This document shows, piece after piece, positions 2,996-10,612 of a stretch of DNA of 10,612 nucleotides. Below the pieces are notes generated by a model. That model was not told the origin of the DNA. It saw nothing but the letters and a program-made list of their open reading frames with translations, and did no database searches. Made by a program: the position numbers and the translations under genes. The stretch's first letter is position 1, and every line of letters begins with the position of its first letter. Origin of the DNA: a virus; UHGV virus genome UHGV-0162104, one strand, 5' to 3'.

Positions 2996-3159
2996 TTAAT
3001 TTTCTCCAGACGTAGCAATGCGGAACAAGATGCAACTTGCCCGGCATTGCATTAATGTCAGTTATGATTTGTTAACTATGAGATGAGTCTATGCAAAAAG
3101 ATCTGTTGAATATTGCGTTCTATATATTTGGTTTTTGCACATTCCTGGTGTTTGCAAAG

Positions 3160-3885
3160 CTATTCTGACAACGAATCAGACTTCGCACCCTGCGTCAGGG
3201 CGTTAATTGCCTTTTGTGCCTGCTGCATGGCTTTCTCAAACGCTGTTGATCCGCGTGTGGTGTTTGCCATTCGGAGCATTGCATTTCTGAATGGCTCGCT
3301 CTCATAGGCGCGAGTAAGAAGTCCGTAGCTTACTGCTGCGCCAGTTGTCGCCGGGTTCATTGCCGTCCCATATCCAATAATGAACGGGATGGTTTGCTGC
3401 CCTGTGGGTGTTGTTACTGCCGCTTTTGCTGCCTGCTGAGTGGACTGAAGGTAGTTTTTCAATCCTTTCAGATAAGCAGCGTCCTGACCCTTAAATGTGA
3501 TGCCAGTCTGGTTTTGCAGGATGTTAAGCTGTCGAAGGAACTGGTCAGGGGAACCGCCTGATTTCTCCATTGCCTTGGCAATGATGCCATTGCGCATTTG
3601 CGCCCTGCCAACACGACCAACTGAGTTATACAGCGTCTTAATTTCCGATTTGTTCTTGCTGAATAGCATGTTGTTGACAACTTCCGGCGTCAGGTCGCCT
3701 TTCATGAGAACATTCTTCAGCCTGGTATTCTTTAGTTTCGCCGCTTCGTCAGCGTAGACGGCATTGGCCTGCTGATATTTACGGAGAGTATCGTTGCCAA
3801 GATTCTGACCAATGGCACCATTGATATCGTCAGTCATAGCCTTGTAAACGCGCTGAATGGCGGCATCGGAACGGTTTGGTAACAC
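3160..3885 (-). CDS. Ejection/DNA-transfer-like protein, either a separate 241-aa gene with a GTG start or the C-terminal part of a frameshifted larger gene
   Basis: 241-aa ORF directly upstream of the tailspike on the same strand, the position held by ejection proteins in P22-like phages. GTG start at 3885 preceded by AAGGG. It overlaps the upstream ORF by 51 nt. Function is assigned by position and composition only. Confidence 0.45.
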   Translation of the reverse strand: MLPNRSDAAIQRVYKAMTDDINGAIGQNLGNDTLRKYQQANAVYADEAAKLKNTRLKNVLMKGDLTPEVVNNMLFSKNKSEIKTLYNSVGRVGRAQMRNGIIAKAMEKSGGSPDQFLRQLNILQNQTGITFKGQDAAYLKGLKNYLQSTQQAAKAAVTTPTGQQTIPFIIGYGTAMNPATTGAAVSYGLLTRAYESEPFRNAMLRMANTTRGSTAFEKAMQQAQKAINALTQGAKSDSLSE

Positions 3886-5153
3886 AGGTCACCCTTCACG
3901 TCCATTCTGAACTGGCTGCGCAGATCGCTTAATTGCTTCAAATCCAGAGTTACCGGGCCATTAGGACCAGCATTGCGAACAAGCTCATCACGATATGACT
4001 GAAGTTTTGAAATCGTCTCGTTATCAGCGACCTTACCAAGCTTCTGCAGGTTAGATATCTCAGTATCTATCTGCTGAATTGCTCTGGCAGGTTGAATGTT
4101 GACTCCTGCCATTGCATTCCGAACCTGCTCAAGTCTATTACCTGCGGCACGACGAATTCCTGATGTTTTCGCTTTAAGGCTGTCAATAATAACCGCTGGA
4201 TCATACTCACCGAATTTATCAGCAAATCTCTGCACCAACTGACTTCTCGCTTCCTGTTGCGTTGCTCTCATTCCGCTTGTGCCAGCCAGGGGGATATTTT
4301 CTGCTGTCGTTTGCGCCATTTTTCCGACGCGGGAAGTAGGCTGTAAGAGGTCAGTAGTATGAAGAGGTACTCCTTCACGCTCTGCAAATCTGATAGCCTG
4401 TTGCGCTTCTGGTGCGATAGCACCACGAACGCCACGATAAGCAGCACCTAATCCACGTCCGGCAGCGTTAATAGCGCCTCCAGCCAAAACACCAACGCCT
4501 AAATCGGTGGCGAGTGCTTCCGCATCATCTTTCGCACTATTTGCAGCAAGTGTTCCGACTGCGTTTTCTGCGAGAAGGCGAGTTGCACCCTGAGCAATTC
4601 GACCAGCAAGTGTTGGTGCCAGTGTTGCCGCTCTCTCAACGCCAGCAGGAGTGAGATAAGGCAATGCCTCCGCAAATACCCTGCCCTCTGTCGTTTGTGG
4701 AGTCAGCGCGCCTTGCTGAAGACCAAAGTCCTGTTCTAATCCCTGCGTTGTTACTCGTGGCGCTGGTTGATATGTCCCATCGCCAATGCCGAGTTTACCG
4801 CCAGCCCATGCCGCCGCGCTTGTTACAGCATCGGCAACTGATGCAGGTATGTTTGCCACGTTCACGCCAGCCTGCACCAGTCCGCGACCAGTCTCTTTCA
4901 CTGCTTCACCAAGGTCAGACATAAATCTACTTTGCTGTGGTTGTTGCTGTGCTACTGGTTGCTGTGTCTCCACTGGCTGCACAGATGGCAATGGATAGGC
5001 AGCATAGAAAGCTTGCTTAGCCTGCTCTGCATTTTCTCCGGCTTGCGGTGCCACGACTTCATTGAAGTATTGCTCCTGAGCCTGCGCTTTTTGTTCTGGT
5101 GCTAACGCCTGATACTGTGGAGAGGCGATAACATCTTTCCATGCTTTAGCCAT
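3834..5153 (-). CDS. Ejection/DNA-transfer-like protein (P22 gp20/gp16-like by position), Ala/Gln/Gly-rich
   Basis: 439-aa ORF with ATG at 5153..5151 and GGGGTGA about 5 nt upstream. Its start overlaps the upstream stop in a TAATG coupling motif. The last ~18 residues (DLCYQTVPMPPFSAFTRL) look non-native, which suggests a frame problem near the 3' end. Confidence 0.5.
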   Translation of the reverse strand: MAKAWKDVIASPQYQALAPEQKAQAQEQYFNEVVAPQAGENAEQAKQAFYAAYPLPSVQPVETQQPVAQQQPQQSRFMSDLGEAVKETGRGLVQAGVNVANIPASVADAVTSAAAWAGGKLGIGDGTYQPAPRVTTQGLEQDFGLQQGALTPQTTEGRVFAEALPYLTPAGVERAATLAPTLAGRIAQGATRLLAENAVGTLAANSAKDDAEALATDLGVGVLAGGAINAAGRGLGAAYRGVRGAIAPEAQQAIRFAEREGVPLHTTDLLQPTSRVGKMAQTTAENIPLAGTSGMRATQQEARSQLVQRFADKFGEYDPAVIIDSLKAKTSGIRRAAGNRLEQVRNAMAGVNIQPARAIQQIDTEISNLQKLGKVADNETISKLQSYRDELVRNAGPNGPVTLDLKQLSDLRSQFRMDVKGDLCYQTVPMPPFSAFTRL

Positions 5154-5769
5154 TAATCACCCCATAGTGAAGAAAAGTTACTGCCAGTAGTAGATTGTTG
5201 CCCTGGCATATTCTGCACCGGCTCCTGATAATCAAACTGTTTTTTAACAGTGCTCAACTTGCTTTCAAGCTGATTTCTAATCTTTCCGATAGAGTCACGA
5301 AAAGCCTTTTCACTCATTTTGGGGCTTAGGGCACCAACCGCATCGGATAATTTTTTACCCTCAGCATCTGAAAGAGCGCCCATACCCTTCAGGGACTGCA
5401 CCATAGGAAGGAATGTTTGAGCTTTAAAGGTGTCGAGCCTTGCTTCAAAGTTAGCCGCATCAGAGCCAGGAACTGTCGGAAACGCTGAGCGAATTCCTAC
5501 TGCTTTTGAAAGGCCGGGGCTTTGCTCTATCTCGTTGAGAGAATCAAGCGCGGTGCTGAACGTATCAACTGCACCCTGAGCGGCGGCCTGCCTGTCAGCG
5601 CGGGCTATGTCAGCCTTTTGCCGAACATCTGCCTGTTTCTGTTTTAGCTCTTCAAGCTTTAACTGATTGCTTTCTCTGGCTATCTGTCTGTCCAGAGCCT
5701 TTTCTTGTAATTCTGCTCTTTGTATTTCGCGGGAAAGAGCAGCATTCTGTGCGCTGATGTTCTGTCCAC
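5153..5769 (-). pseudogene. 5'-truncated gene fragment encoding the C-terminal ~205 aa of a coiled-coil protein (ejection-protein-like by position); no start codon
   Basis: The minus-strand frame is open from ~5807 to the stop at 5153 and reads ...[68 protein letters not shown]...MVQSLKGMGAL...SSLWGD. There is no ATG, GTG or TTG upstream of the internal Met at 5404. Its 5' end runs into the truncated holin in another frame. The 83-aa ORF 5153..5404 in the supplied track is its tail. Confidence 0.55.
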
Positions 5770-6012
5770 GTAGCCGATGAACACGCTCGTTATATAAGCG
5801 AGATTGCTACTTAGTCCGGCGAAGTCGAGAAGGTCACGAATGAACCAGGCGATAATGGCGCACATCGTTGCGTCGATTACTGTTTTTGTAAACGCACCGC
5901 CATTATATCTGCCGCGAAGGTACGCCATTGCAAACGCAAGGATTGCCCCGATGCCTTGTTCCTTTGCCGCGAGAATGGCGGCTAACAGGTCATGTTTTTC
6001 TGGCATCTTCAT
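5770..6012 (-). pseudogene. S: Lambda-type class I holin S, 3'-truncated after codon 81 (of 107 in lambda S as I recall it) and fused to unrelated sequence
   Basis: Translation [81 protein letters not shown] matches lambda S from memory, including the Met1-Lys2-Met3 dual-start motif. After Y81 (nt 5772..5770) it continues as [29 protein letters not shown], unrelated to the lambda S tail, while another frame opens into the downstream fragment. Confidence 0.75.
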
Positions 6013-6303
6013 GTCTTACCCCCAATAAGGGGATTTGCTCTATTTAATTAGGAATAAGGTCGATTACTGATAGAACAAATCCAGGCTACTGTGTTTAGTA
6101 ATCAGATTTGTTCGTGACCGATATGCACGGGCAAAACGGCAGGAGGTTGTTAGCGCAGCCTCTTGCCACCCGCTTTCACGAAGCCAGCCATTGCGCTGGT
6201 TTTCATTTATGCAAAACACACCGCACCGTAGCCACAGCGGATAATGTGATTATTTTTGTCTGTCTGGTATTTGGTTTGATGTGCTTTCAGAAATGTCGTG
6301 CTT

Positions 6304-6338
6304 AAAACGCAAAAAGCCCCGAGCTATTAACTCAGGGC
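6304..6338 (-). terminator. Intrinsic terminator downstream of the late promoter (tR'-like)
   Basis: On the minus strand: GCCCTGAG / TTAATAG loop / CTCGGGGC, an 8-bp stem with one internal mismatch, followed directly by TTTTTGCGTTTT. It lies about 30-60 nt downstream of the predicted promoter. Confidence 0.6.
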
Positions 6339-6367
6339 TTTATTTAACGAGTGCATTTATCCATCGT

Positions 6368-6403
6368 TGAGTCAAATTTACCCAACTTTATTCAAAAAGT
6401 CAA
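6368..6403 (-). promoter_or_regulatory. Late promoter pR'-like with the adjacent Q-utilisation region
   Basis: On the minus strand: -35 TTGACT (6403..6398), 17-nt spacer, -10 TAAATT (6380..6375), then TGACTCAACGATGG. This closely matches the lambda pR'/qut sequence as I recall it, and it sits between the Q fragment and S in the correct orientation. Confidence 0.6.
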
Positions 6404-6445
6404 TATTATGCCGTTAATATGTTGCCATCCGTGGCAATCATGCTG

Positions 6446-6841
6446 CTAACGTGTGACCGCGTTCAAAATGTTGTCTGCGATTGACTCTTCCTTGTGGCAT
6501 TGCACCACCAGAGCGTCATACAGCGGCTTAACAGTGCGTGACCAGGTGGGTTGGGTAAGGTTTGGGATTAGCATCGTCACAGCGCGATATGCGGCGCTTG
6601 CTGGCATCCTTGAATAACCGACGCCTTTGCATCTTCCACACTCTTTCTCAACAACTCTCCCCCACTGCTCTGTTTTGGCAATATCAACCGCCCGACCTGT
6701 ACCGTGGCAATCTCTGCATCTTGCACCAGGCGTCGCGGCACTACGGCAATAATCCGCATAAGCGAATGTTGCGAGCACTTGCAGTACCTTTGCCTTAGTA
6801 TTTCCTTCAAGCTTTGCAACGCCACGGTATTTCCCCGATAC
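6446..6841 (-). pseudogene. Q: Late antiterminator Q (lambda Q family), 3' portion only; no credible start codon
   Basis: Residues ...VSGKYRGVAKLEGNTKAKVLQVLATFAYADYCRSAATPGARCRDCHGTGRAVDIAKTEQWGRVVEKECGRCKGVGYSRMPASAAYRAVTMLIPNLTQPTWSRTVKPLYDALVVQCHKEESIADNILNAVTR match the C-terminal ~130 aa of lambda Q from memory, including the CxxC...CxxC zinc-binding pattern. The frame is open upstream only to 6955, with no ATG; the track's start at 6919 is a TTG. The first ~26 residues do not resemble the Q N-terminus. Confidence 0.65.
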
Positions 6842-6872
6842 CGCAACAGCTACTCCGGCGAAAGCAAAGAAA

Positions 6873-7004
6873 ATGGCTGCTCTGATAGAAAACTGGACTC
6901 CACCTGATGGTTGGTGCAATGGGAATGATCGAGATTGGCATGAAAAAATGAAGGGCTATATCTGCGATTTCTTACGTAAATGCAACGGCTTCAGGGTGAT
7001 GTGA
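6873..7004 (+). CDS. Small ORF (43 aa), either a remnant 3' end of a deleted early gene or a small protein translationally coupled to the next gene
   Basis: ATG at 6873, translation MAALIENWTPPDGWCNGNDRDWHEKMKGYICDFLRKCNGFRVM, stop TGA at 7002..7004 and ATG of the next gene at 7006. The upstream ribosome-binding site is weak and the frame stays open upstream, antisense to the Q fragment. Confidence 0.3.
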   Translation: MAALIENWTPPDGWCNGNDRDWHEKMKGYICDFLRKCNGFRVM

Positions 7005-7005
7005 T

Positions 7006-7566
7006 ATGACCACCATTACCAAAGAACGCGCGGAGATTAAATCATTCATCACTGGTTTCCTGAGCGACCCGGCGCACGATAACCAATCTTCAGACAGCCT
7101 GCTTGCCAATGTGTTTCGTATCGCACTGGCATCGCTGGAAGCCGAACCTGTAAGCCAGACTTACAACTTGCCAGAATTAATCGAAGGGATGGAAGTTTCC
7201 ATTGATGTAAGCACTTGTGATGCTGATTTAGGTAATCGCTATTTCGGTACCGTCACCGAGGCGTTAGAACTTGATACAGCCAAGAATGGTTACATCCTCC
7301 TTGTTCAGGACGCAGAGCCAAACTTCGATGTAAATGGCAACTCTCCGGTAACTCCGGATGGTTGGATAAGCTGTAGTGAGCGAATGCCAGAAGAAACGGG
7401 TGACATTATTGTTGTTTCGGATGGCATTGTAATGTCCGGGATTTCTTATTCTCGTCGTGACGGGTTCTATATAGCCGCATTGGAGTACGACGACGATGAA
7501 CCAATTGACGGTGTAACCCACTGGATGCATCTACCAGAACCGCCGCAGGAGGTTAACCGTGGCTAA
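7006..7566 (+). CDS. Early-region protein with a C-terminal DUF551-like domain
   Basis: 186-aa ORF with ATG at 7006. The C-terminal motif ...TPDGWISCSERMPEE...VTHWMHLPEPP is characteristic of DUF551 proteins common in prophage early regions. Same strand as xis and int. Confidence 0.7.
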   Translation: MTTITKERAEIKSFITGFLSDPAHDNQSSDSLLANVFRIALASLEAEPVSQTYNLPELIEGMEVSIDVSTCDADLGNRYFGTVTEALELDTAKNGYILLVQDAEPNFDVNGNSPVTPDGWISCSERMPEETGDIIVVSDGIVMSGISYSRRDGFYIAALEYDDDEPIDGVTHWMHLPEPPQEVNRG

Positions 7567-7843
7567 CCTGCAACTTGCCGTTAAAGGTGAATATTTCGAC
7601 CAGATGAAGTCAGGCGAGAAAACGGAAGAGTATCGCCTGTGTAATGACTACTGGAAAAAGCGCCTCGTTAACCGTAAGTATGACCGCCTGATTATCACAA
7701 AGGGATATCCGAAGCGCGACGACTTCAGTCGCAGAATTGATGTTCCGTATGACGGATATGAAATCAAGACAATCACACATCCGCACTTCGGCGATAAACC
7801 GGTAAAGGTGTTCGCGATAAAGGTGAATATCGGCAATGAATAA
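7559..7843 (+). CDS. ASCH-like (PUA-fold) domain protein
   Basis: 94-aa ORF with GTG start at 7559 and AGGAGG 6 nt upstream, overlapping the previous stop. It contains GEKTEEYR, which fits the ASCH GxKxxExR signature. Confidence 0.55.
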   Translation: MANLQLAVKGEYFDQMKSGEKTEEYRLCNDYWKKRLVNRKYDRLIITKGYPKRDDFSRRIDVPYDGYEIKTITHPHFGDKPVKVFAIKVNIGNE

Positions 7844-7847
7844 CAAT

Positions 7848-7874
7848 CCTCGCACTCGCGGGGATTTCTTTTAT
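7848..7874 (+). terminator. Candidate weak intrinsic terminator or attenuator after the ASCH-like gene
   Basis: CCTCGC / ACTC loop / GCGGGG, a 6-bp stem with one G-U pair, followed by ATTTCTTTTAT. Confidence 0.3.
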
Positions 7875-7885
7875 ATGGGGATAAT

Positions 7886-8686
7886 ATGACCATCCACTTT
7901 CACGGCAGCCCAATATGGGGTGATGAGCATGCCCCTACAGATATGCTGATTAAAGCCCTTTACCGTGATGGTGGGGCTTTTGTTTCATTTGCCAGACCAG
8001 AGCAGATGAAAAAGATTGCCATGTTCCCTTGTGATATACGCCTTGATAACGGCGCTTTTAGCGAATGGATGAAAGCATTAAAGAAAGGCACTCCGGTAGA
8101 CTGGAGTAAGAGACGAGCAAAATTCTACGACTTTGTTGGGAAGTGGTTCAGCAGAATTGAATGGTTTCTTATACCTGACGTTATCGAAGGGACAGAGGCA
8201 GAAAACGACGAGCAGATTGAGTTGGTTCCTGATTGGCTAAAATCAAAAGCGGTTCCGGTCTGGCATACCGACGAATCAATTGAACGTCTTTTACGCCTTT
8301 CTGGCAAATTTGAATGGGTGGCGATTGGATGCTGCGGCCCACACAGGCACATACGCTCTAAATGGTGGGAACAGAGAATGGATGAAGTTTTCACTGAGCT
8401 TTATATCAATCGTAATTTGAAAGTGAAAATTCATGGTCTTCGAATGCTCGACGTGAGAGTTCTTGGTATGTATCCGTTCGCCAGTGCGGATTCTACTAAT
8501 GTTGCTGTTAACGTACCGAAGACAGAGAAGCGATTTCCTGAGATTACCGACAAACTGGCACGTACAGCTGTACTTCGCGCAGCTATTGAAAAGGTGCACC
8601 CACCATCGATATCAGCGTGGGTAGACAGAAAGATGAGAGAGCCGGCGCAAGCCGGTTTTTTATTTGAATTCATCGACGCCGCTTAA
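7886..8686 (+). CDS. Hypothetical early-region protein of unknown function (266 aa)
   Basis: ATG at 7886 with GGGGA 5-6 nt upstream; long ORF on the same strand as the neighbouring early genes. No motif I can assign with confidence; it has an N-terminal HFHG and an internal GCCGPHRH. Confidence 0.6.
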   Translation: MTIHFHGSPIWGDEHAPTDMLIKALYRDGGAFVSFARPEQMKKIAMFPCDIRLDNGAFSEWMKALKKGTPVDWSKRRAKFYDFVGKWFSRIEWFLIPDVIEGTEAENDEQIELVPDWLKSKAVPVWHTDESIERLLRLSGKFEWVAIGCCGPHRHIRSKWWEQRMDEVFTELYINRNLKVKIHGLRMLDVRVLGMYPFASADSTNVAVNVPKTEKRFPEITDKLARTAVLRAAIEKVHPPSISAWVDRKMREPAQAGFLFEFIDAA

Positions 8687-8743
8687 TGCGGATTTCTTTT
8701 ATCTGAACTCGCTACGGCGGGTTTTGTTTTATGGAGACAAGAA

Positions 8744-9088
8744 ATGTCAGATTTGGCTATGAAGGTTTTGAAATGGCAATCAACTGGCGATGTCGGCATC
8801 AGTAGCGCAACTCTTGCCTCAATCGCATGTGGACTGAAAAAGAATATCTATGGTCATCACTTCGGCGCTCCACATGACGCAGCCGATTTCCGACGATGCG
8901 TTGCACTTGTTGAGCAGATTCCAGAAATCAGAGATTCATTCGACAAGGTTGCAAAGCGCGTTCCGGCATTCAAAGGCATCCTCAACGAATGGGATTCCCT
9001 CGTTGCTCTGTTGAAGTCTGAAATGAAGATACACGGAAACAAAGCACCAGAAACTTACAGAAGAATTAGCGAGCTACGCAAGGACTAA
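8744..9088 (+). CDS. Hypothetical early-region protein (114 aa)
   Basis: ATG at 8744 with GGAGA 6 nt upstream. No recognisable motif. Confidence 0.5.
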   Translation: MSDLAMKVLKWQSTGDVGISSATLASIACGLKKNIYGHHFGAPHDAADFRRCVALVEQIPEIRDSFDKVAKRVPAFKGILNEWDSLVALLKSEMKIHGNKAPETYRRISELRKD

Positions 9089-9178: not shown

Positions 9179-9469
9179 GTGGAAGAAGAAATCTTCACTC
9201 GTGAAGAAGCTGCGTCGTATCTGAAGGTAGACAAAGGCACTATCACGCAGTGGATACGAAGTGGACGACTTCAGGCCGCAAAGATAAATCCAGATAAACC
9301 TAAAAGCCCATATCGCATTTGCAAGTCAGACTGCATTGCGGCGCTTAAGTCTGTGAGACACAATAGCGCGGTGAATGCGGTTGATGTGCAGGAGGTTAAA
9401 GCATGTCAATCAAACTACGCGGTGGCACGTGGCACTGCGATTTCGTCGCGCCAGATGGATCAAGATTAG
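9179..9469 (+). CDS. xis: Excisionase (Xis/AlpA-like HTH DNA-binding protein), possibly shortened at its C-terminus by the same indel that disrupts int
   Basis: GTG start at 9179 with GGAG 7 nt upstream. The N-terminus FTREEAASYLKVDKGTITQWIRSGRL is a typical excisionase helix-turn-helix. It lies immediately upstream of and overlapping int. Stop TAG at 9467..9469. Confidence 0.7.
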   Translation: MEEEIFTREEAASYLKVDKGTITQWIRSGRLQAAKINPDKPKSPYRICKSDCIAALKSVRHNSAVNAVDVQEVKACQSNYAVARGTAISSRQMDQD

Positions 9470-10562
9470 ACGCTCTCTTGAAACATCGGACAAAAGGCAA
9501 GCGCAAGAACTTCACGATCGTCTGAAAGCAGAAGCGTGGAGAGTAAAAAATCTCGGGGAATCACCGAAAAAGCTATTCAAGGAAGCCTGCATACGGTGGC
9601 TGCGTGAGAAATCGGATAAGAAGTCCATTGATGATGACAAGAGCATTATATCGTTCTGGATGTTGCACTTCAGAGAAACCATTCTCTCTGACATAACAAC
9701 AGAAAAAATAATGGAGGCGGTAGACGGGATGGAAAACCGCCGCCATCGCCTGAACTGGGAGATGAGCCGGGACAGGTGTTTGCGGCTTGGCAAGCCAGTG
9801 CCGGAGTATAAACCAAAGCTGGCAAGCAAAGGAACGAAGACGCGGCATCTGGCAATACTTCGCGCTATTCTCAATATGGCTGTTGAATGGGGATGGCTTG
9901 ACAGGACGCCAAAAATATCAACACCACGCGTTAAGAATGGACGAATCAGATGGCTTACAGAGGAGGAATCGAAGCGCCTGTTTGCAGAAATTGTTCCTCA
10001 TATCTTCCCTGTGGTCATGTTTGCAATCACGACAGGCCTTCGCCGTTCCAACGTTACAGACCTTGAGTGGTCACAGGTCGATCTGGATAAGAAAATGGCA
10101 TGGATGCACCCTGATGAAACAAAAGCTGGCAATGCGATCGGAGTTCCTCTTAACGAAACCGCATGCCAGATATTAAGAAAACAGCAGGGACTCCATAAGA
10201 GATGGGTATTTGTCCACACCAAACCTGCCTACCGAAGCGACGGAACAAAAACAGCAGCGGTAAGGAAGATGAGAACCGACAGCAACAAAGCATGGAAGGG
10301 AGCGTTAAAGCGGGCAGGCATTAGCAATTTCCGCTTCCATGACCTGAGGCATACCTGGGCAAGCTGGCTGGTTCAGTCCGGTGTCTCTCTTCTTGCACTT
10401 AAAGAAATGGGAGGATGGGAAACTCTCGAAATGGTTCAAAGATACGCTCACCTTTCAGCCGGGCATCTCACCGAGCACGCGAGCAAAATCGATGCGATTA
10501 TAAGTCGCAATGGCACAAATACGGCACAAGAGGAGAACGTAGTTTACTTAAATGCGAGGTAA
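9403..10562 (+). CDS. int: Tyrosine site-specific integrase (P22 Int family) with an apparent 1-nt frameshift near codon 20-21; possible pseudogene or sequencing error
   Basis: ATG at 9403 with GGAGG 7 nt upstream gives MSIKLRGGTWHCDFVAPDGS..., resembling the P22-family Int N-terminus as I recall it, then stops at 9523..9525. The body of the protein is in another frame (track ORF 9375..10562) and contains the catalytic signatures HDLRHTWASW and VQRYAHL. Stop at 10560..10562, 15 nt before the tRNA 3' end. Confidence 0.85.
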
Positions 10563-10576
10563 CTTATTGATTTAAA

Positions 10577-10612
10577 TGGTGCCGATAATAGGAGTCGAAC
10601 CTACGACCTTCG
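10577..10612 (-). tRNA. thrW: tRNA-Thr (thrW-like), 3' portion only; the gene continues beyond the window. Likely overlaps the prophage attachment core.
   Basis: The plus-strand sequence TGGTGCCGATAATAGGAGTCGAACCTACGACCTTCG is the reverse complement of a tRNA 3' end (...CGAAGGTCGTAGGTTCGACTCCTATTATCGGCACCA) with T-arm, acceptor stem and CCA. It matches E. coli thrW as I recall it, the known integration target of P22. Confidence 0.8.

Follow-up and report, generated by a model that had tools for sequence, protein, structure and literature searches.

The stretch of viral DNA analysed here (the window; UHGV virus genome UHGV-0162104, 10,612 nucleotides) is very probably part of a decayed P22-like prophage in which a deletion killed the Q antiterminator gene and left the adjacent late control unit untouched, so that the late promoter would give only a short RNA and the genes downstream would be silent. 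What remains of Q lies in an open reading frame of 169 codons on the minus strand (6955..6446, with the preceding stop at 6958–6956), of which the front part is not Q at all. The features around the joint are listed below, with strands in brackets.

6843..7004 (+): 5'-truncated DUF7739 gene of the early-left (pL) operon, last ~54 codons, by identity to E. coli SJC33 and Pfam PF24881
6843..6955 (−): non-Q front of the open frame, 38 codons, an antisense reading of the DUF7739 gene fragment
6836..6842 (no strand): deletion junction, a 7-bp microhomology (CGATACC) common to the Q side and the DUF7739 side
6769..6801 (+): paQ (P-a23), a CII/C1-dependent antisense promoter inside Q, with TTGC-N6-TTGC at 6769–6782 and the −10 element TAGTAT at 6796–6801
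6446..6842 (−): 5'-truncated lambda/P22-type Q antiterminator gene, comprising codons 77–207, the stop codon and the last base of codon 76
6375..6403 (−): late promoter P-late/pR', with −35 TTGACT at 6403–6398, a 17-nt spacer and −10 TAAATT at 6380–6375
6377..6397 (−): qut or Q-binding element, TTTTGAATAAAGTTGGGTAAA, within the promoter spacer and identical to the feature annotated in HK544
6352..6368 (−): transcription start, sigma-dependent pause element and pause site, with +1 at 6368, AACGAT at +1 to +6 and the expected pause at +16/+17
6311..6341 (−): intrinsic terminator t-late/tR', a 13-bp stem with a 3-nt loop followed by UUUUU

Positions 6842..6449 (−) encode Q residues 77–207 in lambda numbering, followed by the stop codon at 6446–6448. 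These 131 residues agree with the original prediction, made from the sequence without database searches, that only the C-terminal ~130 aa of a lambda-type Q are present. From frame codon 40 onwards, the encoded protein is 100% identical to the Q proteins of mEp234 and Kapi1; it shows no difference from HK544 Q and a single one (L to Q) from lambda Q. The frame matches Pfam PF03589 (Antiterm, E 2.7e-37) and Q residues 74–207 of PDB 7ubm (E 2e-86), as well as PDB 4mo1 (both E about 1e-86), and the zinc ribbon of the family (CxxC...CxxC) is kept as CRDC...CGRC. No nonsense or frameshift mutation is found in the 131 retained codons. In the alignment with lambda, DNA identity extends leftward from 6842 over what remains of Q with its stop codon and on through pR' to about the 27th transcribed base. 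A megablast search of 50,697 phage records returned 40 that match query positions 169–1011, corresponding to 6842..6000 of the window; these 40 intact phages are collinear with it over 843 bp at 96–97% identity, from 6842 through the promoter and terminator to the start of the holin gene. The fragment is located directly upstream of its own qut-bearing late promoter, and the spacing from its stop codon to the −35 hexamer at 6403 equals that in HK544, P22 and lambda. The deletion breakpoint had been expected near 6842, with alignment to lambda and P22 Q proposed for locating the start of homology; the homology to intact phages begins exactly there, at residue 77.

The front of the frame has a different origin. 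Using the whole 169-codon frame as a tblastn query, we obtained matches in 259 phage records, and each Q match begins at frame codon 40 at the earliest. The first 25 codons matched unrelated places only, and no Q homologue covering the N-terminal part of the frame was detected among the 50,697 phage records, nor, in the same set, was one whose N-terminus matches residues 1–26 of the ORF and which starts at TTG or GTG, the finding that the original prediction had named as contrary to it. The non-Q N-terminus that it described is real: the front 26 residues are the antisense of the 3' part of the DUF7739 gene. The possibility that they represent a variant Q N-terminus was ruled out by the tblastn result together with this antisense identity.

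On its DUF7739 side, the joint was defined by reference to a single relative, the P22-like prophage of E. coli SJC33, with the 3' part of whose 99-aa gene the fragment shares 98.4% DNA identity; positions 48–94 of the 98 in the Pfam PF24881 (DUF7739) profile are matched. The SJC33 gene belongs to the early-left operon and lies downstream of recT-type recombination genes. In a three-way alignment of the window, the SJC33 DUF7739 gene and lambda Q, the two homologies overlap, that of the DUF7739 side covering 6836–7027 and that of the Q side reaching up to 6842. A 7-bp overlap is expected by chance in roughly 1 in 10,000 random joints (an estimate, 4^-7), and this rarity points to microhomology-mediated illegitimate recombination. 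The Q and DUF7739 remnants are divergent, each without its 5' part. In SJC33, about 12 kb lie upstream of the DUF7739 breakpoint in the stretch examined, with Q beyond that stretch, and these 12 kb hold early-left genes, cI, cro, cII, replication genes and nin genes; since these early genes lie in the deleted span, both early promoters are gone. One internal deletion, resolved at the 7-bp microhomology, would have removed everything from about codon 44 of DUF7739 to codon 76 of Q, that is, pL, the immunity region, pR, the replication and nin genes and the 5' third of Q.

Mosaicism is pronounced in lambdoid phages, and the joint is rare: an exact 34-mer across it had no match in 185,579 species-representative (GTDB) genomes, and among 5,426 complete E. 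coli genomes the junction region was nowhere covered on both sides and the whole window was absent at ≥80% coverage. Both points could be taken to favour a chimeric assembly, or a naturally mosaic border where phage modules meet, over a deletion. We consider this extremely improbable, given that the identical junction is carried by seven independently assembled contigs (99.95–100% identity), one of them from an NCBI isolate assembly and the others from ENA and Logan, and it is therefore not an assembly artefact. The isolate of assembly GCA_019839765.1 is one carrier. Moreover, two genes are cut internally and left divergent with both 5' parts missing, the flanking genes are ordered as in a normal integrated P22-like prophage that has lost its centre, and the 7-bp microhomology sits at the joint itself. 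For the deletion that we favour, the intact Q codons and the near-identical copies of the remnant, which differ by 0–3 bases, fit a recent date, though non-function is not proved thereby. Comparing remnant copies as a test for selection was uninformative, the copies being near-identical. This specific deletion is undescribed, but it is ordinary prophage decay, and it illustrates cleanly how decay by microhomology can leave a constitutive promoter-terminator pair unharmed. All the elements concerned fall into well-described families and are identical or almost identical to those of characterised phages.

Four start-like codons occur in the Q frame: TTG at 6919, GTG at 6778 and ATG at 6607 and 6574, the two ATG codons corresponding to Met155 and Met166 of lambda Q. 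The earlier statement that the open frame lacks an ATG thus holds for the N-terminal 116 codons and fails at 6607 and 6574. Upstream of the Q homology, the TTG at 6919–6917 is the sole start-like codon and opens an ORF of 157 aa. No Shine-Dalgarno sequence or purine-rich run was found in the 20 nt before it, and no sigma-70-like site upstream of the frame on the minus strand between 6919 and 7300. Across eight contigs, no gene caller predicted a gene in the Q frame that starts at TTG 6919 or spans the junction; a single call lies in frame, a 95-aa piece (Pfam Antiterm) where contig L011 is cut off, and it falls short of the junction. An out-of-frame ORF at 6577..6846, called as 60 aa and 82 aa in contigs L009 and L012, respectively, was judged spurious. 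As an expressible gene, the fragment has only a TTG and no Shine-Dalgarno sequence, and the pR and nin region that would precede it is deleted. With neither promoter nor ribosome-binding site, and with a TTG as its only start, the fragment is unlikely to be expressed.

The structure of Q-lambda bears on what such a product could do. Residues 1–44 form the torus that narrows the RNA-exit channel, residues 45–60 fold on the paused complex, and the body consists of residues 61–113 and 153–207 (a four-helix bundle), with residues 114–152 as the zinc-ribbon arm (PMC9388147). Q-lambda without residues 1–38 no longer antiterminates yet keeps its DNA (QBE) binding (PMC9388147). With homology beginning at residue 77, the fragment has neither residues 1–60 nor a complete body, the first part of the four-helix body (residues 61–76) being absent as well; it cannot antiterminate because residues 1–76 are missing. 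The retained binding of the shortened Q-lambda nonetheless allows one to imagine that translation of the fragment from TTG 6919 gives a 157-aa product, which binds qut and acts as a competitor or repressor of late activation by incoming phages with a lambda-type Q. The frame is open and agrees with functional Q proteins at 100% over its Q part, and the zinc-ribbon arm and the HTH-containing part of the body are kept. We regard such a role as very unlikely: besides the loss of residues 61–76 from the body, both early promoters are deleted with no sigma-70-like site to replace them, the TTG is a weak start not preceded by a Shine-Dalgarno sequence, gene callers omit the ORF, and its N-terminus is plainly the antisense of the DUF7739 gene. 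On the evidence of its sequence, the Q open frame is a pseudogene fragment and should be annotated as such. Residues 77–207 would remain without promoter, ribosome-binding site, proper start or torus segment, as a dead pseudogene. Its correct annotation is the main value of this analysis, which has little wider significance.

The late promoter next to the fragment (TTGACT-17-TAAATT) matches the consensus at 9 of 12 positions. This score alone does not exceed chance, since a consensus scan found one such site, compared to 2.4 expected in shuffled sequences. The promoter is counted as real not on its consensus score but because of its homology to lambda pR' and to the HK544 and P22 late promoters: it is identical to the annotated promoters of P22-pbi and HK544, and both hexamers are those of lambda pR'. 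The near-consensus pR'-like promoter of the original prediction is therefore upheld by homology and not by its score. The qut annotation in HK544 reads 'similar to lambda Qut site with 2bp mismatch', and the P22 qut has the same two differences from lambda as that of the window. We set +1 at 6368 by homology to the annotated 5' nucleotide of the P22 late RNA; the sequence of the start and pause element is identical in lambda, P22, HK544 and the window, and AACGAT at +1 to +6 is presumably the −10-like sigma-dependent pause element, as in established knowledge of lambda pR'. From −35 to +27, the window equals P22 and HK544. The terminator, whose G+C-rich core and U-tract occupy +31 to +58 (6338..6311), where some 30–60 nt downstream had been predicted, corresponds to the annotated terminators of P22-pbi (37917–37945) and Emek. 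The 70-nt leader folds at −23.4 kcal/mol (z = −4.0), and none of 200 shuffled sequences folds as well.

Between the Q stop and a point past the terminator, a single base, at −39 (6407), separates the window from HK544, so that the impression of an intact late promoter and terminator proved right. Window position 6407, just upstream of the −35 hexamer, has A instead of G on the sense strand; G is found at −39 in HK544 and all other aligned phages, and A only in the window. At 6219–6239 (−), some 130 nt past the late start, there is a second, weak terminator-like hairpin whose conservation extends to HK544, HK022 and Emek; none of these three has it annotated. The module as a whole has the −35, −10, qut, pause element, initial transcribed sequence and terminator ~30–60 nt after the start that characterize the P22/HK022 type, and its promoter, qut and terminator are best annotated together, under the name P22-type late control unit.

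What can be read directly from the DNA is the anatomy, the breakpoints and the match to functional modules; from these we infer promoter activity, termination and silencing, the activity of the promoter and the efficiency of termination being predicted from sequence identity alone. Host RNA polymerase with sigma-70 would initiate constitutively at 6368 and, after a pause at +16/+17, terminate at about +54 to +60, so that the transcript would measure some 56–60 nt (~58). Of the genes downstream, the intact tailspike would be silent, as would the truncated holin, the frameshifted gene 16 and what is left of gene 20 at its 3' end. Since the qut element is undamaged, a Q of lambda or P22 type that reaches it in trans, from another prophage or an infecting phage, could load there and read through.

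Short RNAs regulated by antitermination are made from the late promoters of lambda, 21, phi80, 82 and P22, and pR' is constitutive and terminated in lysogens (PMC7547250). StxS of the Shiga-toxin phages shows that such pR'-tR' by-products can become Hfq-dependent regulators (PMC7547250). By analogy, the promoter-terminator unit might have been retained in the window because its ~58-nt RNA gained a regulatory function of its own. The leader has the corresponding anatomy, lying between a constitutive-type late promoter and its terminator; in the predicted RNA, a hairpin at the 5' end is joined by an A/U-rich linker to an intrinsic terminator that ends in a U-tail, and the late module is unchanged while both neighbouring genes are truncated. 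This explanation is nevertheless quite unlikely. A scan of 5900–7100 found no Rfam family at E up to 1, the 99.95–100% identity of the copies makes conservation uninformative on selection, and the module is equally intact in functional phages, in which Q control fully explains its presence; the adjacent Q codons have likewise escaped damage, a sign that the deletion is young and not that the module was retained by selection. StxS occupies the same genetic position as the leader and has the same origin, a constitutive late promoter and its terminator without Q, but it belongs to a different Q/pR' type, in which 258 nt separate promoter and terminator, and it is processed by RNase E to 74 nt; its Hfq binding and targets have been demonstrated (PMC7547250), whereas the window leader is known from its sequence, with no sequence relation to StxS shown. 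Constitutive promoter-terminator pairs are thought to be raw material for sRNAs such as StxS, and nothing here shows such a change.

Within the Q fragment, the antisense promoter paQ is preserved, with its −10 element 17 nt downstream of the −35 position flanked by the TTGC tetrads. Its sequence is identical to that of lambda and differs by one base from that of P22, and P22-pbi has homologous features, annotated as 'P a23' and 'C1 binding site'. Its own terminator, t-a23 (nt 36–68 of P22 gene 23), lies within the deleted segment. The promoter points over the junction, and its transcript would run in sense into the DUF7739 fragment, a DUF551 gene, three ORFs and xis-int. It is conceivable, though unlikely, that the remnant as a whole responds to other lambdoid phages, with an StxS-like ~58-nt RNA, activation of the tailspike by a foreign Q and activation of the early-left and xis-int genes by a foreign CII via paQ. 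For a possible sRNA role, trans-activation of the tailspike and CII activation of the early-left remnant, the support is confined to the anatomy.

The gene order of the window is that of an integrated P22-like prophage minus its centre, with Q', the late promoter, S', ejection genes and the tailspike following one another on the minus strand. The main genes on either side of the control region are the following.

9179–10562 (+): int and xis
7006–9088 (+): early-left genes
5680..6012 (−): truncated lambda-S-type holin, about 81 codons plus 29 unrelated codons (Pfam PF05106, profile positions 9–83 of 99)
50–2995 (−): intact endosialidase-type tailspike of 981 aa (Pfam End_N_terminal, End_beta_propel, End_tail_spike and Peptidase_S74)

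The truncated holin is the first gene downstream of the late terminator. Homology to the lambda S region covers 6183..5770 and homology to CUS-3-like E. coli prophages reaches up to 5772, an overlap of 3 bp; this holin breakpoint at about 5770–5772 marks a second large deletion, with lysis, packaging and head genes gone. Judging by position, an 83-aa ORF at 5153–5404 (−) represents what is left, at the C-terminal end, of a gene-20-type ejection protein, which has 433 aa in E. coli M21816. The P22-gp16-family ejection gene at 3160–5153 (−) is split into ORFs of 439 aa and 241 aa by a 4-bp deletion at about 3890/3891 relative to the intact 665-aa gene of M21816, and in one metagenomic copy (L008) it is split further. 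Between gene 16 and the tailspike, ~1.4 kb present in M21816 (L015 6011–7468) is absent at 3011–3088 of the window; in M21816, this segment holds an Arc-family repressor and two further genes, in the position of the immI/ant moron. Beyond the tailspike, outside the window, lies a gene for a 223-aa hexapeptide-repeat O-acetyltransferase (L005 16115–16786). The layout of tailspike and acetyltransferase resembles that of the K1-capsule-specific CUS-3-type prophages, and a search around the acetyltransferase gene showed no array of heptanucleotide repeats.

On the plus strand, three early-left ORFs at 7559–9088 (94, 266 and 114 aa) are intact in all copies. They have no match in Pfam, NCBIfam or PADLOC, and four early-left remnant proteins were assigned to no family in the NCBIfam and PADLOC scans. 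The remnant is located at tRNA-Thr(CGT), next to proA (L005 5361–5436), and the chromosomal flank frsA-crl-phoE-proBA (L005 1–5450) is about 93% identical to the 5,426 E. coli genomes, a level at which the host appears to be a non-coli Escherichia. A direct repeat of 209 bp (86.6% identity) is shared by window 10404–10612 and L005 17460–17668, beyond the acetyltransferase gene; it is probably the other attachment-site flank or an older remnant of an integrase 3' end, and bounds a remnant of ~12 kb.

In comparison with known phages, the short leader is not exceptional. The original prediction noted that the promoter-to-terminator distance is much shorter than the ~194 nt of lambda, and this is correct against lambda, in which the same computation gives 193 nt from +1 at 44587 to the end of the tR' U-tract at 44779, the classical 6S RNA; it is no peculiarity of the window, being the norm of the P22 type. 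The P22-pbi record (AF527608) annotates P-late, qut, the late-RNA 5' end at 37887 and the terminator at 37917–37945, that is, +31 to +59, the last labelled 't late or t R', antiterminated by gene 23 protein', and Emek is annotated alike. A 161-bp module was matched by 124 phage records, 84 of which cover at least 80% of it, and lambda and its close relatives match only its first 105 bases. Lambda has the same pR' hexamers and pause element, a qut that differs at two bases, and near-identity to about +27 and again over the last ~170 bp before S; the lambda and short-leader versions diverge after about +27, where lambda carries about 135 extra nt before a different terminator, giving the 193–194-nt 6S RNA. 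We reject the idea that a deletion shortened a lambda-like 194-nt leader to the present one, since P22, HK022, HK544, Emek and dozens more intact phages share it. Judged by its sequence, the ~58-nt leader is the wild-type P22/HK022-type allele and not a feature of decay.

The closest correspondences are thus with P22 and with a group of lambdoid phages that combine a lambda-type Q with the short leader. The P22 late region has the same hexamers, spacer, qut, pause element and initial transcribed region (95.7% identity over the 161-bp module), a terminator in the same place (+31 to +59 in P22, +31 to +58 in the window) and, like the window, paQ/P-a23. Unlike P22, the window has no gene 23 codons before codon 77, no t-a23 and none of the genes upstream, and its downstream holin is of lambda-S type and truncated. 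HK544, HK022, mEp234 and ECP1 share with the window both the lambda-type Q and the short leader, in the 843-bp collinear segment at 96–97% identity, but these are complete, plaque-forming phages with a full 207-aa Q, whereas the Q of the window is truncated.
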